Notes: a model not told the origin generated them from the letters alone. Shown: positions 35,589 through 62,711, counted from the first letter of the stretch. The stretch: 64,000 nt of DNA from a virus (IMGVR_UViG_3300047160_014545:1-64000), one strand, 5' to 3'. Numbers and translations: made by a program.

Positions 35589-35945
35589 AGAAGCGTCCCT
35601 ATGGGCTCACGAGCGTTTCGGGATTTAGCGACAATCGAATGCCGGCCCTCGCCCTCATAGAAACTCATTCGCTCACGAATATCGGAAATATATTCGGCTT
35701 CTTTCTCGACCAAGATTGCGTTGCGGCCCGTGGCCAGGGCGGCGATACCTGTTGTACCTGATCCAGCGAAGCAATCGAGCACCAAGCCATCCTTCGGCGT
35801 AACGAGCGGCACGAGCCATGCCGAAGCGGGCAAGTGTGCTTGTCAGATGATACGGCGGGTCAGTCACGATGCTGTCCACCACCACGCCCTCCGCGACAAG
35901 GCGCGGGATCACTTCGAGCATATCTCCGTGCTCGAGGCGAATCAT
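35585..35945 (-). pseudogene. Internally deleted, frameshifted beta-class N4/N6 DNA methyltransferase
   Basis: Frame A: MIRLEHGDML...DSIVTDPPYHLTS; frame B: WLV.LVTP..GLVLDCFAGSGTTG.AA...GR.AIL.EKE.EY. The two halves are joined out of frame with the central region missing. Confidence 0.8.
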
Positions 35946-37555
35946 GCGACGTTGAGCCGTTCGGCATCCATGTTGCGCCAGTTCTCTTCGAGGTGGTCCA
36001 CCAAACGTAGCCTGGGGCGCTCTCCGGAGGCGCTGGAGCGCTGTTGTTGCCCGGGGGCTAGTTGGGTAGCCTCCTGGCCTTCCCCCCTCTTAGCGGGCTC
36101 CCCAGGGCGCGGCAGAGCATGTTGCGGGCCACCGCCAAATGCACCTAGCTCTTCGAGGCCCGGCGGAGCCGGCGGCGGAGCCGATTTGAGCTCCTCGATG
36201 TATTCGTCGGTAATGTTCGAGAACACCCCGGTCTTGCGCGAAGCCTCCCGCAATTCCTCGGCGGCGATGGCGAGATTGATGATTCCGTCGGCAAGCGCGT
36301 TCGAAACTGCCTGCGTGGTTTGCACCGAAATTTGCGCCTTCTCGGCTTCCTGCAGCTGCCACAGCGTTTTGAACCGGAAATCAAAATTCTCGGGAATGGC
36401 GATGCCTTCGCTGCGCGCCATCATTTTGTAGATTTTGTTGACCGGCTCGTGCAAGTGCCTTTCTTGCTGCGAATTAATCCCGTCGTAGTACATTCGCAGG
36501 TCGCTCTCGCCGGTCGAGTTGAGACCAGCGGGCGACATCCCGAACAGCCGCACCAACGGGATCTGCAACGCTCCGGCTAGCTGCTGCCCGAGTTGCAGCA
36601 GACCATCCGACATCCCGGTAAAATTGCTTTGATTGACCGACCCGAAATCGTCTTCGCCATCGAGCATCGTCACACCCTCGACGCCCTGGAACTTGCGCAT
36701 CATCTCGACGTAGTTGATGACACCGCGAAGCTGGTCGTCGCCGGCATAGATGATCTGACGCATTCCCTTGATTTTAAGCCACCGCAAATATGATTTATAT
36801 ATACTCTGCGAAAGGCCCTGGGTAGCGCTGTCAAAACCGATCATGCGGTCGTAGAGGCGCTCGAGCACCGAAATCGACCACATGTTTTCCATGACTCGCT
36901 GCGCATAAGGCAGCCGCACACCCTCCATGCGGAGCACCCGCGAATAATGCACTTGCTGCCCGGTGAGTGCGGGAGCCAACGCCAGCACATGGTAATATTC
37001 CGGCATCCCGAGGTCGGGCCCAAATTCTTTGACCAGGTTGGTGAGCGAAGGCTCGACCATCCAGCGATCGAGCACCGTCAAACCGCGGAAGTCGTTTTTG
37101 CCCACGGTCTCGATGCGCAAGGGTTGGGAGACGTCCTGGCCTTCGATCAGCATTACAGCGATAGCCCCGCCATAAAGCCGGCCCCACTTGATGGTATCGT
37201 TGATTTCCGGCCACAGGTTCAGCCGGCGCGCCAAATTCTGTAATTCCTCGATGTCGTCGGGCGGCATCGTCGAAGTGATTTCGATGCCCGCTTTGGTCAT
37301 GTCATCGGCGACGAGGTCAATCGCCACCCCACCCAACCAGCTACCGCGATGAATCCACTCGAGCAACGTTCTGTTGCGAGTGATCGGGTTGAAACCATAG
37401 GTGCTCTGGCTGAGCGCATTGTTGGTACCGACACCAAGCGACAGGCCGAAATTTTGAAACGAATCGCGGAATTGCGCGGAGCCGAAATAGCTCTGCATTT
37501 TTTCGTTTTGCTCGGCGAGCGCGCGAGCGTCAGCGATCGGATTCGGATCAGCCAT
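35942..37555 (-). CDS. Portal protein (DUF1073 / anti-CBASS Acb1-labelled family)
   Basis: DSFQNF...LG.GT.N.LS.STYGFNP.TRNR.LLEW..RGSW.GG.A.D.VA.DMT..G...W.RLYGG...FGMSPAGLNSTGESD.R.YYD.I. Confidence 0.92.
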   Translation of the reverse strand: MADPNPIADARALAEQNEKMQSYFGSAQFRDSFQNFGLSLGVGTNNALSQSTYGFNPITRNRTLLEWIHRGSWLGGVAIDLVADDMTKAGIEITSTMPPDDIEELQNLARRLNLWPEINDTIKWGRLYGGAIAVMLIEGQDVSQPLRIETVGKNDFRGLTVLDRWMVEPSLTNLVKEFGPDLGMPEYYHVLALAPALTGQQVHYSRVLRMEGVRLPYAQRVMENMWSISVLERLYDRMIGFDSATQGLSQSIYKSYLRWLKIKGMRQIIYAGDDQLRGVINYVEMMRKFQGVEGVTMLDGEDDFGSVNQSNFTGMSDGLLQLGQQLAGALQIPLVRLFGMSPAGLNSTGESDLRMYYDGINSQQERHLHEPVNKIYKMMARSEGIAIPENFDFRFKTLWQLQEAEKAQISVQTTQAVSNALADGIINLAIAAEELREASRKTGVFSNITDEYIEELKSAPPPAPPGLEELGAFGGGPQHALPRPGEPAKRGEGQEATQLAPGQQQRSSASGERPRLRLVDHLEENWRNMDAERLNVA

Positions 37556-38188: not shown

Positions 38189-38395
38189 TCAGCCTAAAGA
38201 AAATATTTCTTTGGCGCTAATAACTTCTTTACCATATCGGTATTCTATCCAAAGCATGAACCAAGGGAGTTGGATTTTGGATTTAAACCCGAAACAGAGG
38301 TGAGGCTTGAGCATACAATCGTAGGCCGGCCGCCATATGTCGTAGGCTGAGAGTAGTTTGACTGTTGGCATTATTCGTCTCTTTCTTGTCGTCAT
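38189..38395 (-). CDS. Possible hypothetical protein
   Basis: ATGA-coupled to the terL stop; AT-rich; no motif. Confidence 0.3.
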   Translation of the reverse strand: MTTRKRRIMPTVKLLSAYDIWRPAYDCMLKPHLCFGFKSKIQLPWFMLWIEYRYGKEVISAKEIFSLG

Positions 38396-39759
38396 TGCCC
38401 GAGCTTGCGCCACATTTCGAGGTCGACGACGCTTTCGTCGACGAGAAGATCGGTTATTGCCCAGACGAGCGCATCGACTCTATCGGGTGAAGCGGCTTTG
38501 TCGTTGGCGACGAGCGCGCTGCCGCGGTCTTTTGGGTCGACAACGAAATTGACCATTTGGTCTTCGAGGTCAGCAAAGTTCCCGACATGGTGCACCCGCT
38601 TTTGCTCGTAGAGAGCCGCCACGGGTTCGGCGCGCACATATTTTCCTCGAGTGGCTTTAACCTGCTGATAGCTTATCGAGGCATCAATCATGCGCATGGT
38701 ATTTTCGACCATGTCGCCGCCGTTGTTGGTTTCGGCTACGACGCGATCGGCGCGCCAGGTTTTATAGAGATGAACAACCTTGCTCGCCCACTCCAACGGC
38801 GAGTAGCGCCCGCTCTCATCGGCAAGGACAAAGCCATGACCCGCGCTGTTGCGGCCGGCAACGATGATTCCGGTTTCGTCCGACTCCTCACCCATGGTCA
38901 TAGCAGGGTCCACCGCGACCACGATACGAGCGAAATTGCGTGGTCTGCCGCTGGTTTGAAATTCGATGTCCTCTGCTTTGGCACGAGTTTCATCGATCAT
39001 CTGATGGGTCCAGAGCGCGCCTTCGAGCTGCTCCAGAATTTCGGCGTTGAGCTCCTGGCGACCGAGCCGGGTGCCCTCATATTTGCGAATTATCTGGGCA
39101 AAAAATGCGTCGGGTAAATTGGCGCGGTTTTCGTAGGTTGAGCCGCGGGTGACCGCGGTATTTGGATCGGCAATTAAATTTCGAATAATCTGAATAGGCT
39201 TAGGAGTGGTAGTAACTACCACGCGCGGGTCCGCGCCCAAGCGAAGGCCGAACATCAGCATGTCCCAGGCTTCGGGGTAGCGCCAAGACCCCAATTCATC
39301 ACACCAAGAAGCATCATGAGAAGGGCCCCGAAGGCGCTCAGGTTCGTCGGCGCTGTAGGTTGTCGCCATGCCGCCGTTGGGCCAGATGATTTCGCTTTTG
39401 GTGCCGATATACCGCGGGCGCTCGGAAATTCGCCCAACCGATAATATTCCGCTCTCGCCCTCGACCATCACTCGGCGCACATCACCGGCGGTCGGAGCGA
39501 CCAGCGCCATGCGGCGGCGGCCATGATGCATGATCTGGTCGTGCACCCACTCGGCACCGCTCCGGGTTTTGCCTAGACCGCGACCCCCAAGCAGCAACCA
39601 GGTGCGCCAGTTTCCTGGCGGAGGCAGCTGATTAGGACGAGCCCAGAATGTCCAATCGTTTTCGAGAGCTTCGAGATCGGCGTCAGTTAGCCCCTGCAGC
39701 ACTTTCGCTCGTTGCTGCGGCGGCAGCGAGGCGATCGAAGCGGCGTTCAAGACGGGCAC
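38392..39759 (-). CDS. terL: Terminase large subunit
   Basis: WARPNQLPPPG.WRTWL.LGGRGLGKTRSGAEW (Walker A), LRGP..DA.WCDEL (Walker B), nuclease VVAVDPA...DETGI.VAG...SPDR.DA.VWA. Confidence 0.95.
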   Translation of the reverse strand: MPVLNAASIASLPPQQRAKVLQGLTDADLEALENDWTFWARPNQLPPPGNWRTWLLLGGRGLGKTRSGAEWVHDQIMHHGRRRMALVAPTAGDVRRVMVEGESGILSVGRISERPRYIGTKSEIIWPNGGMATTYSADEPERLRGPSHDASWCDELGSWRYPEAWDMLMFGLRLGADPRVVVTTTPKPIQIIRNLIADPNTAVTRGSTYENRANLPDAFFAQIIRKYEGTRLGRQELNAEILEQLEGALWTHQMIDETRAKAEDIEFQTSGRPRNFARIVVAVDPAMTMGEESDETGIIVAGRNSAGHGFVLADESGRYSPLEWASKVVHLYKTWRADRVVAETNNGGDMVENTMRMIDASISYQQVKATRGKYVRAEPVAALYEQKRVHHVGNFADLEDQMVNFVVDPKDRGSALVANDKAASPDRVDALVWAITDLLVDESVVDLEMWRKLGQ

Positions 39760-51121: not shown

Positions 51122-51472
51122 ATGCGCGGTTCATTCTACACCCCACGCGAAAGCCTGATCCCGAAAGGGGCGCAAAAGATTTCCGACAAGCTCTCGGATG
51201 CGGTCGCCTATCTCTACCCTGCCGGTAATGGCAAGCCTGCGATGATGGTCTTCTACGGCAAGCAGGCGAAGCCGGTGGCCCGATTCTTTTACGTCGATGA
51301 AGCGAGCCGCGAAGCGGCCGTAAAACGCTATTTTGATGCGCGCCAACAGCACAACGCCAGAAATATCGAAAGGGCCACTCCAGCGCTTCCCCAGGGGCTC
51401 GCAGACACCATCTCGCGGAACTGGGCCCGGAAGCGGTCGAGGCATTCCGCTCCGCCATGGAAGAATTCTTGA
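51122..51472 (+). CDS. Conserved phage protein, C-terminus probably truncated or fused
   Basis: GKP....F.GKQAKP.....Y..E..R...V..YF motif followed by a low-information tail. Confidence 0.55.
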   Translation: MRGSFYTPRESLIPKGAQKISDKLSDAVAYLYPAGNGKPAMMVFYGKQAKPVARFFYVDEASREAAVKRYFDARQQHNARNIERATPALPQGLADTISRNWARKRSRHSAPPWKNS

Positions 51473-51627
51473 CCAGCCCTGGCAAGATGCGCGCCTGGAA
51501 GAATGGTGACACTGACCGATTCACCTACCGCATTCAGGTGTTTCGCGTTTCGACAGCGAAGAGAAAGCTGCTGATTGGCATATCCGGTTTTCACGCAAGT
51601 CGGCCTAACTCCAAAGGAACCAAAAAA

Positions 51628-52353
51628 ATGGCTCAATCCCTGCAAATCGTTTCGTCCGAGAAATCCCGCCCGACAGCAAAGCGCCGCGGCATCAAGGCAT
51701 TCTCGGTCACCTCATTGTGCGGACACACCATGTATCCGCCGCCGGTAGCCTGTGCCGAATTTGCTGGCGGTGAAAAAATCCGCATGTCTTTCTGCCAGAT
51801 GGCGGGCAAGCCGTGGGACTTCACCCGAGCTCGGCGGCTCTTGGCGCAAACCATCGGCAACGAGCGCGGCCGCAGCACCCCGGTGCACCATAAGGATTTG
51901 GAAAACCTGCGGCGCAAGGTCGAGGCGGCGCGCACCCTGGCGGCTCGGCCTGGCTCGGCCGGCGAAGGCGATGCCGCGAAGCGCGCGCTGGCGCGGCTTT
52001 CGAAGTCGGAAAAGCTTCTCGCCGAGAAGCAGGCAATGGCAGCGGCCTTTGATGCGCTCAACGTTTACACCCGCGTCTATGCGCCCGCCACCGACTTTGT
52101 TTTGTTCTGGGTCGAGCACGACGGCAAGAGGATCGATCCAGCCAAGATCGAGGCACCCGCCAGAAAGGCGCTAGGGAGCCCCAGGAAGCGCGGAAGCTCC
52201 CCGGTGGCCATACCTACCCCGGAACCCGCAAAGAGACCTCGAAACCATGGAAAAAGGCGGCATAAAGATGGCCATGAGCATAATAATCGATCGCGCCTAC
52301 ATCGAGCAGCTCTCCTGGCGCTTCGCCCGGACCATGCCGCAATGGCCGCATGA
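51628..52353 (+). CDS. Hypothetical protein
   Basis: AAAGGA RBS before MAQSLQIV; I.MSF.Q..GKPWD motif. Confidence 0.5.
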   Translation: MAQSLQIVSSEKSRPTAKRRGIKAFSVTSLCGHTMYPPPVACAEFAGGEKIRMSFCQMAGKPWDFTRARRLLAQTIGNERGRSTPVHHKDLENLRRKVEAARTLAARPGSAGEGDAAKRALARLSKSEKLLAEKQAMAAAFDALNVYTRVYAPATDFVLFWVEHDGKRIDPAKIEAPARKALGSPRKRGSSPVAIPTPEPAKRPRNHGKRRHKDGHEHNNRSRLHRAALLALRPDHAAMAA

Positions 52354-52621
52354 GTACACGGTGCGGGCTCGGGACGGCTCGGCTCGGGATCATGCCTATT
52401 TAGTGCTGTGGCAAACCATCCGAGACCATGGCACCGAGGAAACTTTTACCGGCACCCGCCAGCCGTCGACCAAGAAATACCTCTATCCTGGTGACGGTTG
52501 GCGCTACTGGTTCGAAAATCCGGATCCGCACACAAGCCGGATAATCAACCGGAACCGGGTGGAGGAAGCGGAACGGCTGCGAGCTCTGGGGCTACTCTCC
52601 GCACGATCTTTGCCCGAGTAG
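52268..52621 (+). CDS. Conserved hypothetical protein (W.FA.TMP.WPHEYTVR)
   Basis: Recognisable motif; converges on the GNAT gene. Confidence 0.6.
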   Translation: MAMSIIIDRAYIEQLSWRFARTMPQWPHEYTVRARDGSARDHAYLVLWQTIRDHGTEETFTGTRQPSTKKYLYPGDGWRYWFENPDPHTSRIINRNRVEEAERLRALGLLSARSLPE

Positions 52622-52991
52622 CCAGCACCAGCCGGACCCGCGTCGCACCTGCGGTGGTTCGCTTTCCGACAACCTGGAAACCCTTGGCCGTATAATGTGA
52701 GGGATAGTAGGCATACGCATCGACATACGCGACGCGCCCGCGGCATTCCGCAATGTGTCGGTCAATTAACGCTCCAGCGACCCCCCGGCGCCGCCAAGCA
52801 CCATCGACCCACATGCCGCGAGACCGAGCGCGGCCGTTCGCCATTGTGAGCCCGCCCACCGCTACAATGACGCCATCCTGATATCCGGCAAACCATCGGG
52901 TGTTGGCCATCTCGCCAAGAGTGACGCGGTCCTTGGCAGCGGCTTTTTTCAGATGGGCGATTTCCTGATATGAAACCTCTTTAATTTTCAT
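52545..52991 (-). CDS. GNAT-family N-acetyltransferase
   Basis: Motif A WV...WRRRGVAGALI; Y.AKGF.V. Confidence 0.8.
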   Translation of the reverse strand: MKIKEVSYQEIAHLKKAAAKDRVTLGEMANTRWFAGYQDGVIVAVGGLTMANGRARSRGMWVDGAWRRRGVAGALIDRHIAECRGRVAYVDAYAYYPSHYTAKGFQVVGKRTTAGATRVRLVLATRAKIVRRVAPELAAVPLPPPGSG

Positions 52992-52992
52992 C

Positions 52993-53565
52993 TTATCGCT
53001 TCACATAGAATTTGCTGCCGCAATTATCGCAGAGCACCTCGAGATAGTCGGGCTCTTGGATATCGACGAGATCAGCTGCCGTTAATTCATCCTTATCGGC
53101 ACCATCCCCCCTAGCCTCGGCAGCTGGCGAAGCGGCCGGCGACTGGGCAAATGACAGATTGAGTTGCGGCAACTCTGTTTTGAAGTCCAGCACTGCGAGG
53201 TCGAATTCGAATGGGAGGTTCAAGCCGGCGAGTTCGCTGCCGAGCAAATCGTGGTCCCAAAGCGAAAACTCCTGCACCCGATTATCGGCGATCCGGTCGA
53301 GTTTGTTGGTCTCTGCATCGTTGTCGGTGTAGACGCATGGCAGCTCTTTCATGTTGAGCCGACGAGCGGCCTGCCATCGCGTATGGCCTTTTACGATGAC
53401 ATTGTTGCGGTCGAGAACGAGCGGAACATTAAACCCGACTTTGGGCAATATCTCGACCAATTTAGCAACGGTTTGATCGTTTCTGCGGGCATTTCGCTGA
53501 TAAGGCTTGATCCGCCCAATTGGGACCATCTCGATTTTGCTGACGACGTCTACCATGGGAATCAC
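52993..53565 (-). CDS. ParB/Srx N-terminal domain protein with C-terminal Zn ribbon
   Basis: IKPY.RNARRND..V..L...GF.VPLVLD...VIV.GHTR..AA..L.M...P; RIADNR; CDNCG. Confidence 0.85.
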   Translation of the reverse strand: MIPMVDVVSKIEMVPIGRIKPYQRNARRNDQTVAKLVEILPKVGFNVPLVLDRNNVIVKGHTRWQAARRLNMKELPCVYTDNDAETNKLDRIADNRVQEFSLWDHDLLGSELAGLNLPFEFDLAVLDFKTELPQLNLSFAQSPAASPAAEARGDGADKDELTAADLVDIQEPDYLEVLCDNCGSKFYVKR

Positions 53566-54122
53566 GATCCTTTGGTTTTCAGCCGGCTTTCAATCTGCCG
53601 CGGCGTTTCCAGCGCCCGCGAATATTCCGCATTTTCATAAAGCTTGGCATATCCGGTAATATGTTTCAACCGGGCAAGCTCCTCGGGCTCCAGGCCAATT
53701 TCCTCACAGATCTGTTTATTCCCCCATCCGTTCTCGAGCATTGACATCACGAGCGTACCCATGCCCTGGATGCTGTGCTTGCCACGAGCCCGGTTGTGGC
53801 GGACGGTCGAAGCCATGCGGTCATTCAGCGACTTGTCGAGCACGACGATTGGCAGCAAACCATGGTTGCGCTCGTATATGTCGCGGAACCGCTTCATTAC
53901 TGTGAAGCGATGGAGCCCGTCTATGATAATCCAGCCATCCCGCGCATCATCCCTGATAGTGACAATAGGCATCGTGTACCCATCGTGCTTTATCGACGTG
54001 TACAGCAGCCGCAGCTCGGAGATAGCTACATTATTGGGGTTATAATTGTTAGCAAATACTTTCTCTATCGGCACCCAAATGACATTGCTTACAGGATTGT
54101 GGCTCAGATCAGGTGCGGACAT
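53562..54122 (-). CDS. ibrB: IbrB-like ParB domain protein
   Basis: PV..V.WVP..KV.AN.YNPN.VA..E..LL..SI..DGYT.PIV...IIDG.HR...RM.STVRHNRARG.H...M..LV. Confidence 0.85.
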   Translation of the reverse strand: MSAPDLSHNPVSNVIWVPIEKVFANNYNPNNVAISELRLLYTSIKHDGYTMPIVTIRDDARDGWIIIDGLHRFTVMKRFRDIYERNHGLLPIVVLDKSLNDRMASTVRHNRARGKHSIQGMGTLVMSMLENGWGNKQICEEIGLEPEELARLKHITGYAKLYENAEYSRALETPRQIESRLKTKGS

Positions 54123-55200
54123 GAGGCCTCTGATCAATAGCGATTTTCTTCGCCTTTGATTTGGTGCCGTCAACGTCATTGATCACCAGCCCGCGCACAT
54201 GCTCCCTATACCACTCATCTGTATTCTGCCCTTGCCAGAGCTTCAGGAAGATCGGGCGGTTGTGAGGTGCCACCAGATTATCTAGCAGGTAATCGCGGTA
54301 TTCATGCCAGTCCCGAAACACCGAGGGCAACTTGGTCGGGACCAGATCTTCGTGTATGTGATTATAGGTCGATGCTCCGGGAACACGACGCACAAAGCGA
54401 TCGTAAGTTTCGGGCTCAACTTCCTGCAGAATAGCAATCCAGCGAATCGACGTCTCATGAATTAAAAACGATACCCTCATATCATGACGAGCAATTCCGT
54501 AGCGGAAATAATAATCATAAACCCGGTTGTAAGGCAGATTATTCTTGGCGAGGCAAACCCAGACATCCTGATCGGTAAAATCATAGATTGGCCAGAAAGT
54601 GCGGGTCGGGCCGAACATTCGTTTTTCGCACCACTTGATATGCTTATAGGTACCCCCGCCGGCAGTGAACTGAAGGCGGCGCATCGGGCTCTCCACCATG
54701 CGGATCCCGACAAGCACGCCCACATGCTTCTTCCCGGCGACACCGCAGTGCTGGTGCATGTTCTTGCTGATCTGAGCGTATCGGTCGTAGGGGGCGCACG
54801 GGTTGACTTTGATGCTGATGGGATCTTGCGGGCGGATCCATAAATCCTGTGCCTCGGGATCCCAGCAAGTCAAAAAGCCGCTGGTGTGCGACAGGCTGTT
54901 TGTCAGCCGGAACGGAAACTGAAACCAATAGGGCTCGATGTCCGGGGAATATAAAACCTGTCGCATGTGATCATAGGTACCCTGCCACTCGACCTCCTGG
55001 TCGAGCCAGACCACCTTGATTTTAGAAATGCCCCGCTCTTTGGCGACAACCCGGGCGAGGTGCAGCAACACAGTGCTGTCCTTGCCGCCCGACATGGCGA
55101 CGATGACGTCGTCGCACTCGTCATAGACAAAGCGGACGCGATCTAACGCCGCCTCGTAAACCGTGATGTTCTTGTAGGTATTTGCGCGCTTGATGGCTAT
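54109..55200 (-). CDS. ibrA: IbrA-like PAPS-reductase (PP-loop) family protein; N-terminus extended to an ATA codon
   Basis: V.EAALDR.RF.YDE.D.V.V..SGGKDSTV.L; WLDQE.E..GT; GIR..ES..R; F.PIYD.T..DVW; MRVS.LIHE. The only ATG in this region lies inside the P-loop. Confidence 0.85.
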   Translation of the reverse strand: MAIKRANTYKNITVYEAALDRVRFVYDECDDVIVAMSGGKDSTVLLHLARVVAKERGISKIKVVWLDQEVEWQGTYDHMRQVLYSPDIEPYWFQFPFRLTNSLSHTSGFLTCWDPEAQDLWIRPQDPISIKVNPCAPYDRYAQISKNMHQHCGVAGKKHVGVLVGIRMVESPMRRLQFTAGGGTYKHIKWCEKRMFGPTRTFWPIYDFTDQDVWVCLAKNNLPYNRVYDYYFRYGIARHDMRVSFLIHETSIRWIAILQEVEPETYDRFVRRVPGASTYNHIHEDLVPTKLPSVFRDWHEYRDYLLDNLVAPHNRPIFLKLWQGQNTDEWYREHVRGLVINDVDGTKSKAKKIAIDQRPHVRT

Positions 55201-55270
55201 TTCAGGGGGATCCTACCAAAGCTGAACCTGCGGCATAAGGCGCATCGTTGCTTGAGCCATCGCCAGAGGC

Positions 55271-55465
55271 TCATTCGCTCGCCTGCCGGCGCCGCCGGCT
55301 AATGCCAAAGCGGCCGCGGCCTCGGGTATCTGTCGCCCGACTATCAGAACCGCCGTGCTCCCGCACATACTGATCGAACGGCATCTTGGTGCCGTCAGGC
55401 AAAACGATGTTCGTTTGGTCCAGGTACTGCAAAAAGAAACGGTCGGGCCCGTCATTATCAGCCAC
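55271..55465 (-). CDS. Small protein directly after the ART gene (candidate antidote)
   Basis: GGAGGAG RBS, GTG start 3 nt after the ART stop; DRF......NIVL motif. Confidence 0.55.
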   Translation of the reverse strand: MADNDGPDRFFLQYLDQTNIVLPDGTKMPFDQYVREHGGSDSRATDTRGRGRFGISRRRRQASE

Positions 55466-55467
55466 AG

Positions 55468-57669
55468 CTACTCTCCTCCTTTATCCATTTCGCATTCCAT
55501 ATATTTCTTTTGCCTATCGAAATGCGTGATTTTCAGAAACACGCCGCGATTAAAAAGGATCTCGCTTTCACCAACGTTGGCTACCGTAGTTCCTGGCATG
55601 CCGGCAGGAGCGGTGATTTTGATGGTCATGCCGCCCCAACTTTTCATAGGGTTCGGATCAAGGCTGGTTGAGACAAAACCCCGTTCCTCCCAGCGCATTC
55701 CGACCGTGCCGATGGACATCAACGCCGCCTGATATGGTCCCTTGACCCGGCGCCACAAGGTCATCGGCAAAGGCGTTTTCGCCTGGCCCAGCCACTCGTC
55801 AAGAGCCTTCACACGGGTGTCCGTGCAATCTACCTGCTGGCGCATGCAATCGTTCATATCGGTATAACCGCTTCCCTTATAGCTGCTCAGAGAAGACTGC
55901 TGATCAGGCGTTATTTCTGGTCGATGCGTTTCGAGCTTGTGATAGGCGTCCGAATAACTTCCTGCAGCTATGGAGCTCTCGATCTCGGCGACCGGCACCG
56001 GCGCTGGTTTTGGCATTGGTGGCGGTTTGGGGGGCGGAGCGGGTGCAACCGGCTTCACGGGAGCCGTGACATCGGCACTAAGAATGGTATTTCTTCTATC
56101 TGCTAATTTGGTCGCGAGAGATTGCTTCGCAGCCGAATCGCCAGGACCCCATTGCTCAACTACAGAAAGAATAGCCGCCTCTGAAATTTGCAGAGACTTC
56201 TTTGATTCCTGCAATTCCTGTGGTGTCATATCGCCATAAAGCGAAGCAGCTGACGGATTCTTATGCGGGTCTCGCATCGTTGTCCATTCCGATGCCTGAT
56301 ATCCGAAGGCGTCTCCCTTCGGGGTTCCCCCAGCGCGGTAGAGCAGAGCGCCGCCAAAATCCAGCGGCAATAACTTTCCGTTTTTATCTGCCCCGACATT
56401 ATCGCCGGTCAGCCCGACTGCGTCCCAATTGGCCAGCCATGCGTGGATCGCGAAATCCTTCTTGGCCTGCGCCCGCTGCTCGGGCGTGAGTTCCTTCAGG
56501 TTGTCTTTGCCGAGGTCGACCATCTTGGTCGCCACTCCGAGCTTACCTTCGGGCAACGCCACCGGGTGATAATCCAGAGTGCTGCCCCCAGCCAGCCGGA
56601 AAAGAGCGGCAGCGAGCATCTCATTCGCGGCGTGGGCATCGGTCTTAGAGAACTTCACATAGTATTTATTCCCTGATGCGTCCTCGAACACACCGCCCGG
56701 GTTCGAACCCTTTTGCGGCCCAACCTGCTTGAGATTGGCGAAGTTCAAAATCGGCCCGATCGCCGAGTTGGCTCGTTCAACCGGCGAAAGCTCTTTCTTG
56801 GGCGTCGGCACCTCCGGCTCTGGCTTGGCCGCAGGAGCCTCTGCGGGGACTGCTGGCGCTTCGCCGCCGGGCTTGCCCTTGAACTTGCCGCCGGGCCCGC
56901 GCGGATGGAGCGCTTCAAACGCTATATTGAGCTGCTGCTGAGTCGTACCCTGAACGATTCCTTTTTCCTTTGTCCAAAGCTGCCACTTTCCGGCATTCGG
57001 GGGATCAATCCCGATAACGAGGGATTCAGTTCCCGCGTTGTTGACCCACCGCATGGCCTGGCCGCCCTGCCACTTGGTGCCCTCCATATTTGGCAAAACC
57101 GCATTCACCCCAGGCGGAGGTGCTAGCGGCGTCTTTCCGGCGGCTGGTTCCTTTGCTTCAGGCTTCGCCGCCGGGGCCGCTGCGGAGGCCGCTGGAGCAG
57201 GGGAAGGCTTTTCGTGATGGATATGTACCTGTGGCTCGTTAGGGTGCTCCAGCAAGCTCTGGAGAGCCGCTAGACCCTTGCCAGTTTTCTCTACTCGATA
57301 GCCGGGTCCGGCACTCACCCATTTGAAAGACCCCGACGGGATATATTTAGATTTGCCAGAGGTTGGCGGGTCAAACGAGAAGGTGAGCGTTTTCCCGCTC
57401 GGATGCGCAAAAGTCTGCTGTCCCTTTTGATGTTGAAATCCGAGTTCCTGTAACAGGTTTGTAATTTTCGAGCTTAGTGAGTAGGGGGCGCCCTTTGCAG
57501 CTGCCGGCGTTTCCTTTCCTACCGCTGCCGCTTCGCCGCCCCCCTCGCCTGCCTTGACAAACTGCCCACCCTTGCCGGTGCCCTTGGCACCGCGCGGATG
57601 CTCAGCTTCCTTGAATTCATCGCGGAAATAATACCTCTTGTGTCCGATATGGATCCCGATGGTTAGCAT
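55468..57669 (-). CDS. Multidomain effector: HPRG..G.F motifs, HipA/PI3K-like kinase fold, VIP2-type ADP-ribosyltransferase
   Basis: Kinase: GSNPGG......YYVK, ANE.LAA.L, AWLANWDAVG...DN, LDFGGAL. ART: Y.G.GY..MN..MR, TLWRRV, GFVSTS, GESEILF (R-STS-ExE). Confidence 0.85.
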   Translation of the reverse strand: MLTIGIHIGHKRYYFRDEFKEAEHPRGAKGTGKGGQFVKAGEGGGEAAAVGKETPAAAKGAPYSLSSKITNLLQELGFQHQKGQQTFAHPSGKTLTFSFDPPTSGKSKYIPSGSFKWVSAGPGYRVEKTGKGLAALQSLLEHPNEPQVHIHHEKPSPAPAASAAAPAAKPEAKEPAAGKTPLAPPPGVNAVLPNMEGTKWQGGQAMRWVNNAGTESLVIGIDPPNAGKWQLWTKEKGIVQGTTQQQLNIAFEALHPRGPGGKFKGKPGGEAPAVPAEAPAAKPEPEVPTPKKELSPVERANSAIGPILNFANLKQVGPQKGSNPGGVFEDASGNKYYVKFSKTDAHAANEMLAAALFRLAGGSTLDYHPVALPEGKLGVATKMVDLGKDNLKELTPEQRAQAKKDFAIHAWLANWDAVGLTGDNVGADKNGKLLPLDFGGALLYRAGGTPKGDAFGYQASEWTTMRDPHKNPSAASLYGDMTPQELQESKKSLQISEAAILSVVEQWGPGDSAAKQSLATKLADRRNTILSADVTAPVKPVAPAPPPKPPPMPKPAPVPVAEIESSIAAGSYSDAYHKLETHRPEITPDQQSSLSSYKGSGYTDMNDCMRQQVDCTDTRVKALDEWLGQAKTPLPMTLWRRVKGPYQAALMSIGTVGMRWEERGFVSTSLDPNPMKSWGGMTIKITAPAGMPGTTVANVGESEILFNRGVFLKITHFDRQKKYMECEMDKGGE

Positions 57670-60939: not shown

Positions 60940-62556
60940 TTAACCAAGCACCCGCGCCTCCGCAGCATCGAAGAATTTCTTGTCGATCTCGATGCCGATG
61001 GCCCGCCGCCCGTTTTTCTTGGCTACTGCCGGCACAGTCCCAACACCCATGAACGGATCTAACACCAACTCACCAGGAATCGTGATCAAATCGATAAGGT
61101 ATGCCACAACCGCTTGCGGCTTCTGAGTCGGATGGAGCGGATTGCCCTTCTGATCGACGATACGCTCCTTTCCCTGACAAATCGGGAATCGCTGATAATT
61201 CAACCCCGCTCCATCTGCATCACCGGGATAGTTGAATGTGCGCACGCCACCAGGCTTGGAGAACTGGATCGCGTAGTCCATCGCCGGCATGAAGTCCGCC
61301 TTCGTTACACTTGGCCCAGGATTGGAACGGCACCAAAAGAACGTCTGGCGGATTTCAAATCCTGCCGCATCAAACAACGACTGAGCGACATTAAGCCAGC
61401 GCTCACCGACAAACATGAACCCGGTGCCGCCAGGTTTCAGAATCCTAAAAAACTCCGCGGCCCAATCCGCCATTGCAGCAACGAAATCACCCGCCTCGTG
61501 ATTGTCCCAGTCACCGAAATTCTTGTTCCAGTCAGGCTGAGTGCTTAGCGTAAAGATACGATCATCACTGATATTGTATGGCGGGTCGGTGACAATAGCG
61601 TCGATGGCACCATCGCCAATTTTGGCTAGTTCATCCAGTGCGTCACCAAGGTGCAGCTGGACGCTGTAGCGCTTGGCCACCTTGTCGCGGGTAGCTTCGA
61701 GCAGCTTCTCCAGCTTTGGCCCCGGCCCTTTCTTGTCGAGCCACTCGTCGTCGTAGATCCCCTTATGCACCTGCTCGAAGGCCTCATCGATGATATCTTC
61801 GTCGACTTCCCCAAGCTGCCGTTTCAGCCAGCATTCCATCGCGGCCTGTGCATGATAGGAATCGGCCAAGCGCGAAAATTGCTTCTTGGTGAAGCGACGG
61901 TCGTTATCGTCTTTGCCGGCAGCGAGCCACTTCACCAGTTCGATCTGCAGACGCGGATTGAGCGCAATCGCGTCCGCGTCTTTCTTACCGAGCACGTCCC
62001 ACTTGCGCGGCAGAAGCGCGCGGAGCAGGCCTTCCGTAAACATTGCCACAGGTGTGGCAATCTCTGCCACAACGCCCTGATCTCGTGGCAATCCGTTTTC
62101 TCGAACCGTTGTGGCAACAATATTCCAAGCTACAAGTGCTATCTTTTGGAGCAGGGCGTAGTTGCTGACGTCGCTCCGGCTCCATCCGAGCTCGCCGGCG
62201 ACGGCCTGCTGCGTCTTGCCCTCGCCAAGCATCTGCCAGATCAGTTCCGCGTAGCAGCAGAATGTCATCGGCAGCGCGTCTTCACTGGCGATGTTCAGAT
62301 CAATCGCCGCTTTCGTAAGAGAACCATTCGGCGGCGGGCCGACGTCCATATACGCCTCGGTGTGCCCGAGCCGCTTCAAGGCCTCGTACTTGTGGTTGCC
62401 GCCATAAAGGATGCCATCGGCGGTGACAGCCAACGGATACTGGCGGAGCAATCCGAGCGTCTCGATCTTGTGGATCAGGCGCTCGATGTGGCGCTCGTTG
62501 AGCGGGCGGACGACGTGAATGCTCTCGATCGTCGAGAGCGGGAGTAACTCGGTCAT
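60940..62556 (-). CDS. ParB-HTH-DNA methyltransferase (beta class, N6-A/N4-C) fusion
   Basis: N-terminal ParB (YPLAV...LYGGNHKYEA.KRLG), HTH (TQQAVA.ELGWSRS.VSNY), DAIVTDPPY, HPTQKP...LI...T.PG.LVLDPFMG.GT. Confidence 0.88.
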   Translation of the reverse strand: MTELLPLSTIESIHVVRPLNERHIERLIHKIETLGLLRQYPLAVTADGILYGGNHKYEALKRLGHTEAYMDVGPPPNGSLTKAAIDLNIASEDALPMTFCCYAELIWQMLGEGKTQQAVAGELGWSRSDVSNYALLQKIALVAWNIVATTVRENGLPRDQGVVAEIATPVAMFTEGLLRALLPRKWDVLGKKDADAIALNPRLQIELVKWLAAGKDDNDRRFTKKQFSRLADSYHAQAAMECWLKRQLGEVDEDIIDEAFEQVHKGIYDDEWLDKKGPGPKLEKLLEATRDKVAKRYSVQLHLGDALDELAKIGDGAIDAIVTDPPYNISDDRIFTLSTQPDWNKNFGDWDNHEAGDFVAAMADWAAEFFRILKPGGTGFMFVGERWLNVAQSLFDAAGFEIRQTFFWCRSNPGPSVTKADFMPAMDYAIQFSKPGGVRTFNYPGDADGAGLNYQRFPICQGKERIVDQKGNPLHPTQKPQAVVAYLIDLITIPGELVLDPFMGVGTVPAVAKKNGRRAIGIEIDKKFFDAAEARVLG

Positions 62557-62711
62557 ATCAGGCCCTCTTCGTCTCCGGCTTGGCGGTCCCGGAATTGGAT
62601 TACAGGAGCAGCTTACGCTGCGCCGGAAACGAAGAGGATTCCACGTTTCCAATTCTGTGCTGCCTCTCTCCGGCACCTCGGGTCAAGCTTCGCTTTTCGG
62701 CGCCGCCGGCT

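Follow-up and report, generated by a model that had tools for sequence, protein, structure and literature searches.

The closest described relatives of the locus treated here are IbrA and IbrB of Escherichia coli, a phosphoadenosine phosphosulfate (PAPS) reductase-fold protein and a ParB/Srx protein, which we take to be represented by the ECOR-9 IbrAB island and by the K-12 paralogues YbdN and YbdM. An IbrA/IbrB pair, or a pair labelled PAPS reductase and ParB-like nuclease, is also annotated in Flavobacterium, Streptococcus, Mycobacterium and Microbacterium phages; among cultured phages, homologues of the IbrA/IbrB type are present in 223 records. ParB/Srx-fold proteins are nucleotide-dependent DNA-binding switches that bind various nucleoside triphosphates (NTPs) (PMC12704722), and in the Dpd system a ParB-like NTPase goes together with a DNA-modifying enzyme (PMC12839542). 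The present locus lies in an IMG/VR virus record of 81,624 bp, rated complete by CheckV, of which the first 64 kb (IMGVR_UViG_3300047160_014545:1-64000, hereafter the window) were analysed. It encodes IbrA, IbrB, a second ParB-like protein (ParB2), a small acyltransferase of the GNAT family and a converging gene for a protein with a domain that we call WPHEY. We give a probability of about 0.42 to the reading that the locus is a lineage-specific version of a widespread phage IbrA/IbrB module, the most likely function of which would be covalent modification of the phage DNA before packaging.

An alignment of IbrA retrieved 80 IMG/VR loci at 43-74% identity, which group into 33 clusters at 85% identity; the total of confirmed relatives in that database, found by two short peptide patterns alone, is 479. 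With 22 further loci on genome contigs of bacteria and archaea belonging to many phyla, the related loci number 102. IbrB is near or adjacent to IbrA in 78 of the 80 viral and in all 22 genome loci, and ParB2 is present in 77 viral loci (the three misses being contig ends) and 17 genome loci; that is, IbrA is accompanied by IbrB in 100/102 loci and ParB2 is found in 94/102. The absences of IbrB or ParB are mostly contig ends or distant relatives, and the linkage persists across phyla and rearrangements. IbrA, IbrB and ParB2 are the conserved core of the module and the WPHEY protein is its conserved fourth partner, whereas the GNAT occurs in three of the 80 viral loci and in none of the genome loci. 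Neither ParB2 nor WPHEY is named in the IbrAB papers that were found. The matches of IbrA in genome contigs have a best identity of 52%, come from Oscillospiraceae, Bacteroidales, Anaerolineae, Proteobacteria, Flavobacteria and an archaeal plasmid, and point to no host.

The module is encoded on the minus strand, which holds nearly all long genes of the window, and the transcription order is a 733-amino-acid ADP-ribosyltransferase protein, a 64-amino-acid gene, IbrA (54109-55200), IbrB (53562-54122, within an open reading frame, ORF, that extends to 54179), ParB2 (52993-53565) and GNAT (52545-52991). The start of IbrB, either the likely ATG at 54122 or the one at 54179, overlaps the end of IbrA, the GTG start of ParB2 shares four nucleotides with the stop of IbrB (GTGA), and a single nucleotide separates the stop of ParB2 from the ATG of the GNAT. 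The WPHEY gene, which carries the FARTMPQWPHEYTVR motif, is found on the plus strand (52247-52621, alternative start 52268) and overlaps the 3' end of the GNAT gene by 77 nucleotides. A first, sequence-only reading of this DNA had described four overlapping or abutting genes, for a PAPS-reductase protein with the SGGKDS motif, an IbrB-type ParB, a second ParB and a GNAT, converging on a gene with the WPHEY motif; profile and Pfam matches (phrog_2302, phrog_2159 and PF01507 for the first two proteins) and the overlap just mentioned bear this description out. A megablast of the region found nothing matching among cultured phages or E. coli genomes. A promoter and terminator scan of the region gave no excess over shuffled expectation and was not used.

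IbrA is a PAPS-reductase-fold PP-loop ATP pyrophosphatase with a helical, DUF3440-like C-terminal domain. It matches PF01507 (PAPS_reduct) with E 3.5e-12 and 47.1 bits against a cut-off of 22.5 bits, and phrog_2302 with E 2.4e-71 over residues 1-288, and SGGKDS is present. The match to PF11922 (DUF3440) stays at 18.4-20.1 bits, below the cut-off of 25 bits, and covers the first half of the profile only. In the AlphaFold2 model (mean confidence, pLDDT, 89.8), the helical domain comes after an N-terminal adenine-nucleotide alpha-hydrolase core of the PAPS-reductase type. Structures matching the N-terminal ~230 residues include CysH, APS reductase, the PAPS domain of FAD synthase, CysD, FMN adenylyltransferase and TilS, and the fold matches to CysH and the FAD synthase domain reach E ~1e-7; searches of PDB sequences gave nothing significant for IbrA, IbrB, ParB2, the GNAT or the profile of WPHEY. 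Among 33 IbrA sequences, the SGGKDS motif and some 50 further positions never vary, which fits an ATP-pyrophosphatase or adenylyltransferase.

No cysteine is invariant among these 33 sequences, and among 64 IbrA sequences no cysteine column is conserved to 95% or more, the best columns reaching 81-86%. Scores with the equivalog models are also low, 15.2 bits for NCBIfam DndC (TIGR03183) against a cut-off of 290.4 bits, and 18.5-22 bits for the cysH models against cut-offs of 154-165. Because of the missing invariant cysteine and these scores, sulfur-transfer chemistry like that of Dnd or CysH is unsupported for IbrA, and the separation from canonical Dnd that had been proposed from the sequence is strengthened. 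The nearest defence-family profiles in PADLOC are BrxP (E 3.4e-10) and DndC (E 1.3e-5). The BrxP match is partial (36.8 bits, profile positions 114-350 of 779), and none of the other BREX models matched among the seven module and neighbour proteins scanned.

IbrB has the ParB/Srx fold with DGLHR and RHNRARG motifs and matches phrog_2159 (E 1.4e-66), while a PADLOC scan gave no hit above noise. ParB2 has a KGHTR box and matches phrog_620 (E 1.9e-38), PADLOC MTase_II (E 1.3e-16) and phrog_498 (E 2e-31), the last being the N-terminus of ParB-methyltransferase fusions; the domain of ParB2 is the one that is fused to phage DNA methyltransferases. Three of its cysteines (C77, C179 and C182) are kept in at least 95% of sequences. 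The Zn ribbon earlier ascribed to ParB2 is borne out as far as a C-terminal CxxC(G) knuckle and an invariant Cys77 are concerned, but it is not a four-cysteine ribbon. Membership of the partition ParB family (ParB/Spo0J) was considered and rejected: the ParB_N scores of IbrB (17.0 bits) and ParB2 (20.7 bits) fall below the 26.3-bit cut-off, TIGR00180 gives 20 against 58, and no helix-turn-helix domain was detected in either protein, although a GxxR box is present and the fold is shared.

The WPHEY protein (124 amino acids) has no Pfam or PHROG match. A profile built from 42 homologues, used along with tblastn, places it at 22 of 81 viral loci (the window counted) and at 9 of 22 genome loci, 31/102 related loci altogether; IbrA has a conserved partner in the gene that had been taken for a mere convergent neighbour. 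Leaving aside the window and its closest relative (L006), the WPHEY gene abuts or overlaps the start of IbrA on the same strand in 19 of 20 viral loci; at L062 it follows directly after IbrA. In the nine genome loci it is always upstream of IbrA and on the same strand. The convergent position behind the GNAT is found in the window and L006 only, where the gene has been relocated. Upstream of the WPHEY gene, and overlapping it, the window has a 298-amino-acid ORF (51457-52353, plus strand) that matched no family and has a counterpart of 58% identity in the same relative position in L006.

Invariant residues of WPHEY are MP..PHEYTVR, a G, YW and NR, and the AlphaFold2 model (pLDDT 89.5) is an alpha/beta domain. 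Fold searches gave no convincing match (best E 0.04 with Foldseek against the PDB, best Z 3.9 in a wide VIA-align search); BFVD returned one unnamed viral protein of 93 amino acids (E 1.2e-5), and a protein atlas look-up returned unnamed viral clusters only, with scores of 0.80 or less. Neither tblastn against cultured phages nor a PADLOC scan found WPHEY. An exhaustive profile search, on the other hand, recovered 3,088 cluster representatives (50% identity) at E <= 0.001, most of them standalone proteins of 90-200 residues. In bacteria, fusions join the domain to NERD nucleases, PDDEXK_4 (PD-(D/E)XK) nucleases, GmrSD_N (DUF262) proteins of ~840 residues, FtsK (after the gamma domain), tyrosine integrase and SAM methyltransferase. 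Because all named fusion partners act on DNA, WPHEY is probably a DNA-recognition domain, and it possibly reads modified DNA. In the three bacterial contexts examined, WPHEY genes neighbour WYL regulators, and the surroundings resemble defence islands.

In most relatives the module is found 1-4 genes upstream of terS/terL (phrog_309, phrog_38, GpA terminase). The same proximity is seen in Mycobacterium phage Daisy, with a ParB-like gp1, a PAPS-reductase-like gp4, gp5 and the terminase gp6, and in Microbacterium phage Hendrix. Variable genes stand between ParB2 and the terminase, namely a pyruvoyl-dependent arginine decarboxylase in seven loci, a radical SAM protein in three and several families of 200-280 amino acids of no named function; other accessory enzymes in relatives are glycosyltransferases and methyltransferases. 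The decarboxylase and radical SAM genes hint that an amine such as agmatine may be a substrate in some lineages. Examples of arginine decarboxylase or radical SAM genes inside or just after an IbrA module are L076:2345-2842 (plus strand) and L075:6127-6978 (plus strand).

DNA modification had been suggested by the sequence-only reading, in the form of adenylation followed by acylation. The general suggestion remains the best supported one, because every partner domain is DNA-associated and the nearest defence relatives of IbrA are BrxP and DndC; acylation as part of the core chemistry is not supported. The conserved core, the PP-loop, the fold matches to proteins that use the alpha-phosphate of ATP, the proximity to the terminase in relatives and the variable accessory enzymes all count in its favour. 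For substrate, chemistry and purpose we infer the following scheme. DNA binding and the positioning of the enzyme would fall to WPHEY and the two proteins with the ParB/Srx fold, and IbrA would use its intact SGGKDS PP-loop and ATP to adenylate a target group on the DNA. A nucleophile that may depend on the lineage would then displace AMP, and lineage-specific enzymes could supply or tailor the attached group. The GNAT at the end of the operon might perform an optional tailoring step, for instance N-acylation of an attached amine, or be unrelated cargo. The purpose would presumably be escape from host restriction.

Several points weigh against modification. The activation of prophage eib genes is reportedly the only published phenotype of IbrA/IbrB in E. 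coli, and a literature search found no experimental study of the phage module and no report of a modified nucleoside. The module of the window is located ~13 kb upstream of the large terminase gene TerL (38392-39759; portal 35942-37555), without terminase adjacency, and there is no ATG, GTG or TTG between the conserved N-terminus of IbrA and a TAG at 55213-55215. Moreover, a protein with the ParB fold may serve as a regulator or NTPase and have no part in modification (PMC12704722).

A bolder extension, which we regard as improbable, is that IbrA, IbrB and ParB2 install a covalent mark on DNA, that WPHEY is the reader of this mark, and that the bacterial GmrSD-type, NERD and PD-(D/E)XK fusions restrict DNA that carries it. 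The standalone WPHEY protein of the phage would then guide or limit the enzyme. If this were true, the module and its bacterial counterparts would be two sides of an undescribed modification-based arms race, and the variants with GNAT, arginine decarboxylase or radical SAM would be lineage-specific elaborations of the mark.

The main rival to DNA modification is a regulatory one, in which IbrA/IbrB and ParB2 are DNA-bound, NTP-dependent co-activators of the late genes for packaging and virion, and no stable modification of DNA takes place. Activation of prophage gene expression appears in the papers found as a label only, and it is this label that sustains regulation as the chief alternative. 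The location of the module in most relatives, between early and late genes and immediately before terS/terL, fits such a role, as does the behaviour of ParB-fold proteins as nucleotide-dependent switches (PMC12704722). However, the invariant PP-loop and the ~50 invariant residues of IbrA point to an enzyme, the co-located glycosyltransferase, methyltransferase, radical SAM, arginine decarboxylase and GNAT genes are hard to account for by regulation alone, and a distance of 13 kb separates the module of the window from the late genes. Regulation is accordingly judged unlikely, if less so than the other alternatives.

The DNA might also be left unchanged if the module served counter-defence and had a small molecule or nucleotide as its target, with IbrA adenylating or consuming a host metabolite or immune signal and the ParB/Srx proteins working as NTPases. 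The binding of various NTPs by the ParB/Srx fold (PMC12704722) is compatible with this, PAPS-reductase-fold enzymes use small nucleotides and metabolites such as FMN, sulfate and PAPS, bacterial WPHEY genes occur in defence-island-like contexts beside WYL regulators, and an ADP-ribosyltransferase effector is encoded directly upstream of the module. Yet the fusion partners of WPHEY and the relatives of ParB2 are DNA enzymes, not signal-processing enzymes, and no PADLOC or anti-defence family matched IbrB, GNAT or WPHEY. This explanation is less likely than regulation and, in our view, has rather little chance of being correct.

The GNAT (148 amino acids, translationally coupled to ParB2) passes the Pfam cut-offs for Acetyltransf_10 (26.6 bits, cut-off 23.6) and Acetyltransf_1 (26.0 bits, cut-off 20.7), and scores ~26 bits with Acetyltransf_7. 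A motif-A-like WRRRGVAG (R-x-x-G-x-A/G), the acyl-CoA-binding motif, is conserved in its family. Only five other members of this family were found by a word-indexed search of 5.8 billion proteins. Three of the 102 related loci have the GNAT: L006, with the gene order of the window and 64% identity, and L008 and L009, with 37% identity, in which the GNAT gene stands between IbrB and ParB2 but is read from the other strand. A further homologue (L086) adjoins DUF5681-TerL on a 3.2-kb contig that includes ~200 nucleotides upstream of the GNAT; no ParB2 or WPHEY, and none of the module proteins of the window, was detected on this short contig. Unrelated GNATs adjoin IbrA in the Microbacterium phages Hendrix and Rasputia (Rogerhendrixvirus), and these are not detectably orthologous to the GNAT of the window (BLAST E 3.6). 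At least three separate recruitments have put a GNAT beside IbrA: one in the window and L006, one in L008 and L009, and one in the Rogerhendrixvirus phages, where the GNAT is directly upstream of IbrA. A Pfam scan of 135 neighbour-family representatives showed no other GNAT family among those listed, tblastn of the GNAT against 50,697 cultured-phage records gave no match at E <= 0.01, and a PADLOC scan gave no hit.

The GNAT is a rare lineage-specific add-on and not a conserved partner. The sequence-only reading had made it part of the system and had named neighbourhood conservation with ibrAB as a check, and the outcome, 3 of 102 loci, goes largely against it. The suggested likeness to the Mu Mom protein also finds no support in the tblastn search, which showed no similarity to any cultured-phage gene. 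That the GNAT is nevertheless integral, such that IbrA adenylates and an acyl group is then transferred to a base or to the backbone in the manner of Mu Mom, is doubtful, more so than counter-defence. Some functional link of the GNAT is suggested by translational coupling, the GNAT starting one nucleotide after the stop of ParB2, and by the repeated independent recruitment next to IbrA. Its absence from 99/102 related loci (97%) speaks against a core role, however, as do the lack of another GNAT family among those listed for the neighbours, the homologue beside a terminase on a short contig where neither ParB2 nor WPHEY was detected, the lack of detectable orthology between the GNATs of different lineages and the missing match in cultured phages.

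Modification of RNA, with IbrA acting on a tRNA base as a PP-loop enzyme of the TilS or TtuA type in favour of phage translation, is also less likely than regulation and the least probable reading of all, for although the IbrA core also has structural matches to TilS/MesJ, TtuA and NcsA and a tRNA cluster in Hendrix is ~1.2 kb (two ORFs) upstream of the block of glycosyltransferase, methyltransferase, GNAT and IbrA, the best matches of IbrA are CysH, APS reductase and FAD synthase and not tRNA enzymes, no THUMP, PUA or TilS C-terminal RNA-binding domain was detected, and the partners in the module are DNA-associated.

The start of IbrA in the window is probably non-canonical. The mechanical ORF call begins at 55095, the first ATG, which encodes the M of MSGGKDS, but the ~30 residues found ahead of the PP-loop in every relative (…TYKNITVYEAALDRVRFVYDECDDVIVA) have an in-frame coding sequence upstream of this position. 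The start is probably ATA at 55200 or ATC at 55194, ~10 nucleotides after an AGGA, and the closest relative has a TTG at the equivalent position. A 15-codon ORF (ATG 55257) stops at the in-frame TAG at 55213-55215, 12 nucleotides ahead of ATA 55200. Termination-reinitiation or a recent nonsense change may lie behind the unusual start. Recoding of TAG as an explanation was rejected because TAG terminates 12/61 long minus-strand ORFs and is an ordinary stop. In two related loci, L084:442-2805 and L085:5082-7445, the IbrA match is interrupted by ~1.4 kb with two small ORFs, which could be an intron or the insertion of a homing element, and in L028 IbrA is divided into two ORFs of 240 and 129 amino acids.

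The 733-amino-acid protein directly upstream of the module (55468-57669, minus strand) has a C-terminal ADP-ribosyltransferase domain (PF03496, E 1.2e-13; Alt-like phrog_802), and the 64-amino-acid gene between it and IbrA is located at 55271-55465 (minus strand). Farther away, a protein of 578 amino acids (60940-62676, minus strand) has an N6_N4 DNA methylase domain confined to residues 358-573; its N-terminal 330 residues have no Pfam or PHROGs match.

IbrA/IbrB-type pairs are very common in phages and are routinely mislabelled as sulfur-metabolism genes. The kind is already known though biochemically uncharacterised, and what is added here is the definition of a four-part core, a rare variant with a GNAT and the link to a domain family. 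The locus helps to define a conserved unit (IbrA, IbrB, the CxxC-tailed ParB and WPHEY) apart from swappable cargo such as the GNAT. Through WPHEY, the module is connected with a large unannotated domain family of ~3,100 clusters at 50% identity, the fusions of which tie the module to DNA. Several cultured phages with BSL-1 hosts bear the module, which puts its chemistry within reach of direct tests; Flavobacterium phage FCL-2 and Streptococcus phage CHPC877 are further cultured carriers.

Compared with IbrA/IbrB of E. coli and with the phage pairs (phrog_2302 with phrog_2159), the locus shows the same succession of a PAPS-reductase-fold protein, its PP-loop intact and its C-terminal domain helical, and then a ParB/Srx protein. 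It differs in that the window and ~90% of the sampled relatives add a fixed, CxxC-tailed ParB2 and frequently WPHEY as a fourth member. The DUF3440 match of the window's IbrA is, in addition, below the cut-off, and a GNAT has been added at this locus.

Hendrix and Rasputia have a comparable arrangement of glycosyltransferase, methyltransferase, N-acyltransferase and IbrA-like genes, continued across the genome ends by three ParB genes, the last of which is a full-length homologue of ParB2, then one gene and TerL. In the Hendrix record (NC_047977) the module is split over the two ends of the linear sequence (1-2007 and 94205-97753), with the block that includes IbrA at the right end and the three ParB-like genes at the left, and is seen by annotation pipelines as unrelated genes. 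In contrast to the window, these phages have an IbrA of ~39% identity, the GNAT is upstream of IbrA, and glycosyltransferases and a methyltransferase are carried.

DndC and BrxP, the PAPS reductase of BREX type 4, have the PP-loop superfamily fold in common with IbrA, with weak profile similarity, and in Dnd there is a ParB-family partner (DndB), as here. Unlike these enzymes, IbrA is without the Fe-S triad or persulfide dyad, and the module is without cysteine desulfurase, DndD/E or a BREX partner. The likeness to Dpd consists in a ParB-like protein beside a putative DNA-modifying enzyme. No TGT/DpdA or Que genes were found among the module genes or the neighbour families listed for related loci, and in contrast to Dpd the enzyme of the present module is a PP-loop ATPase.

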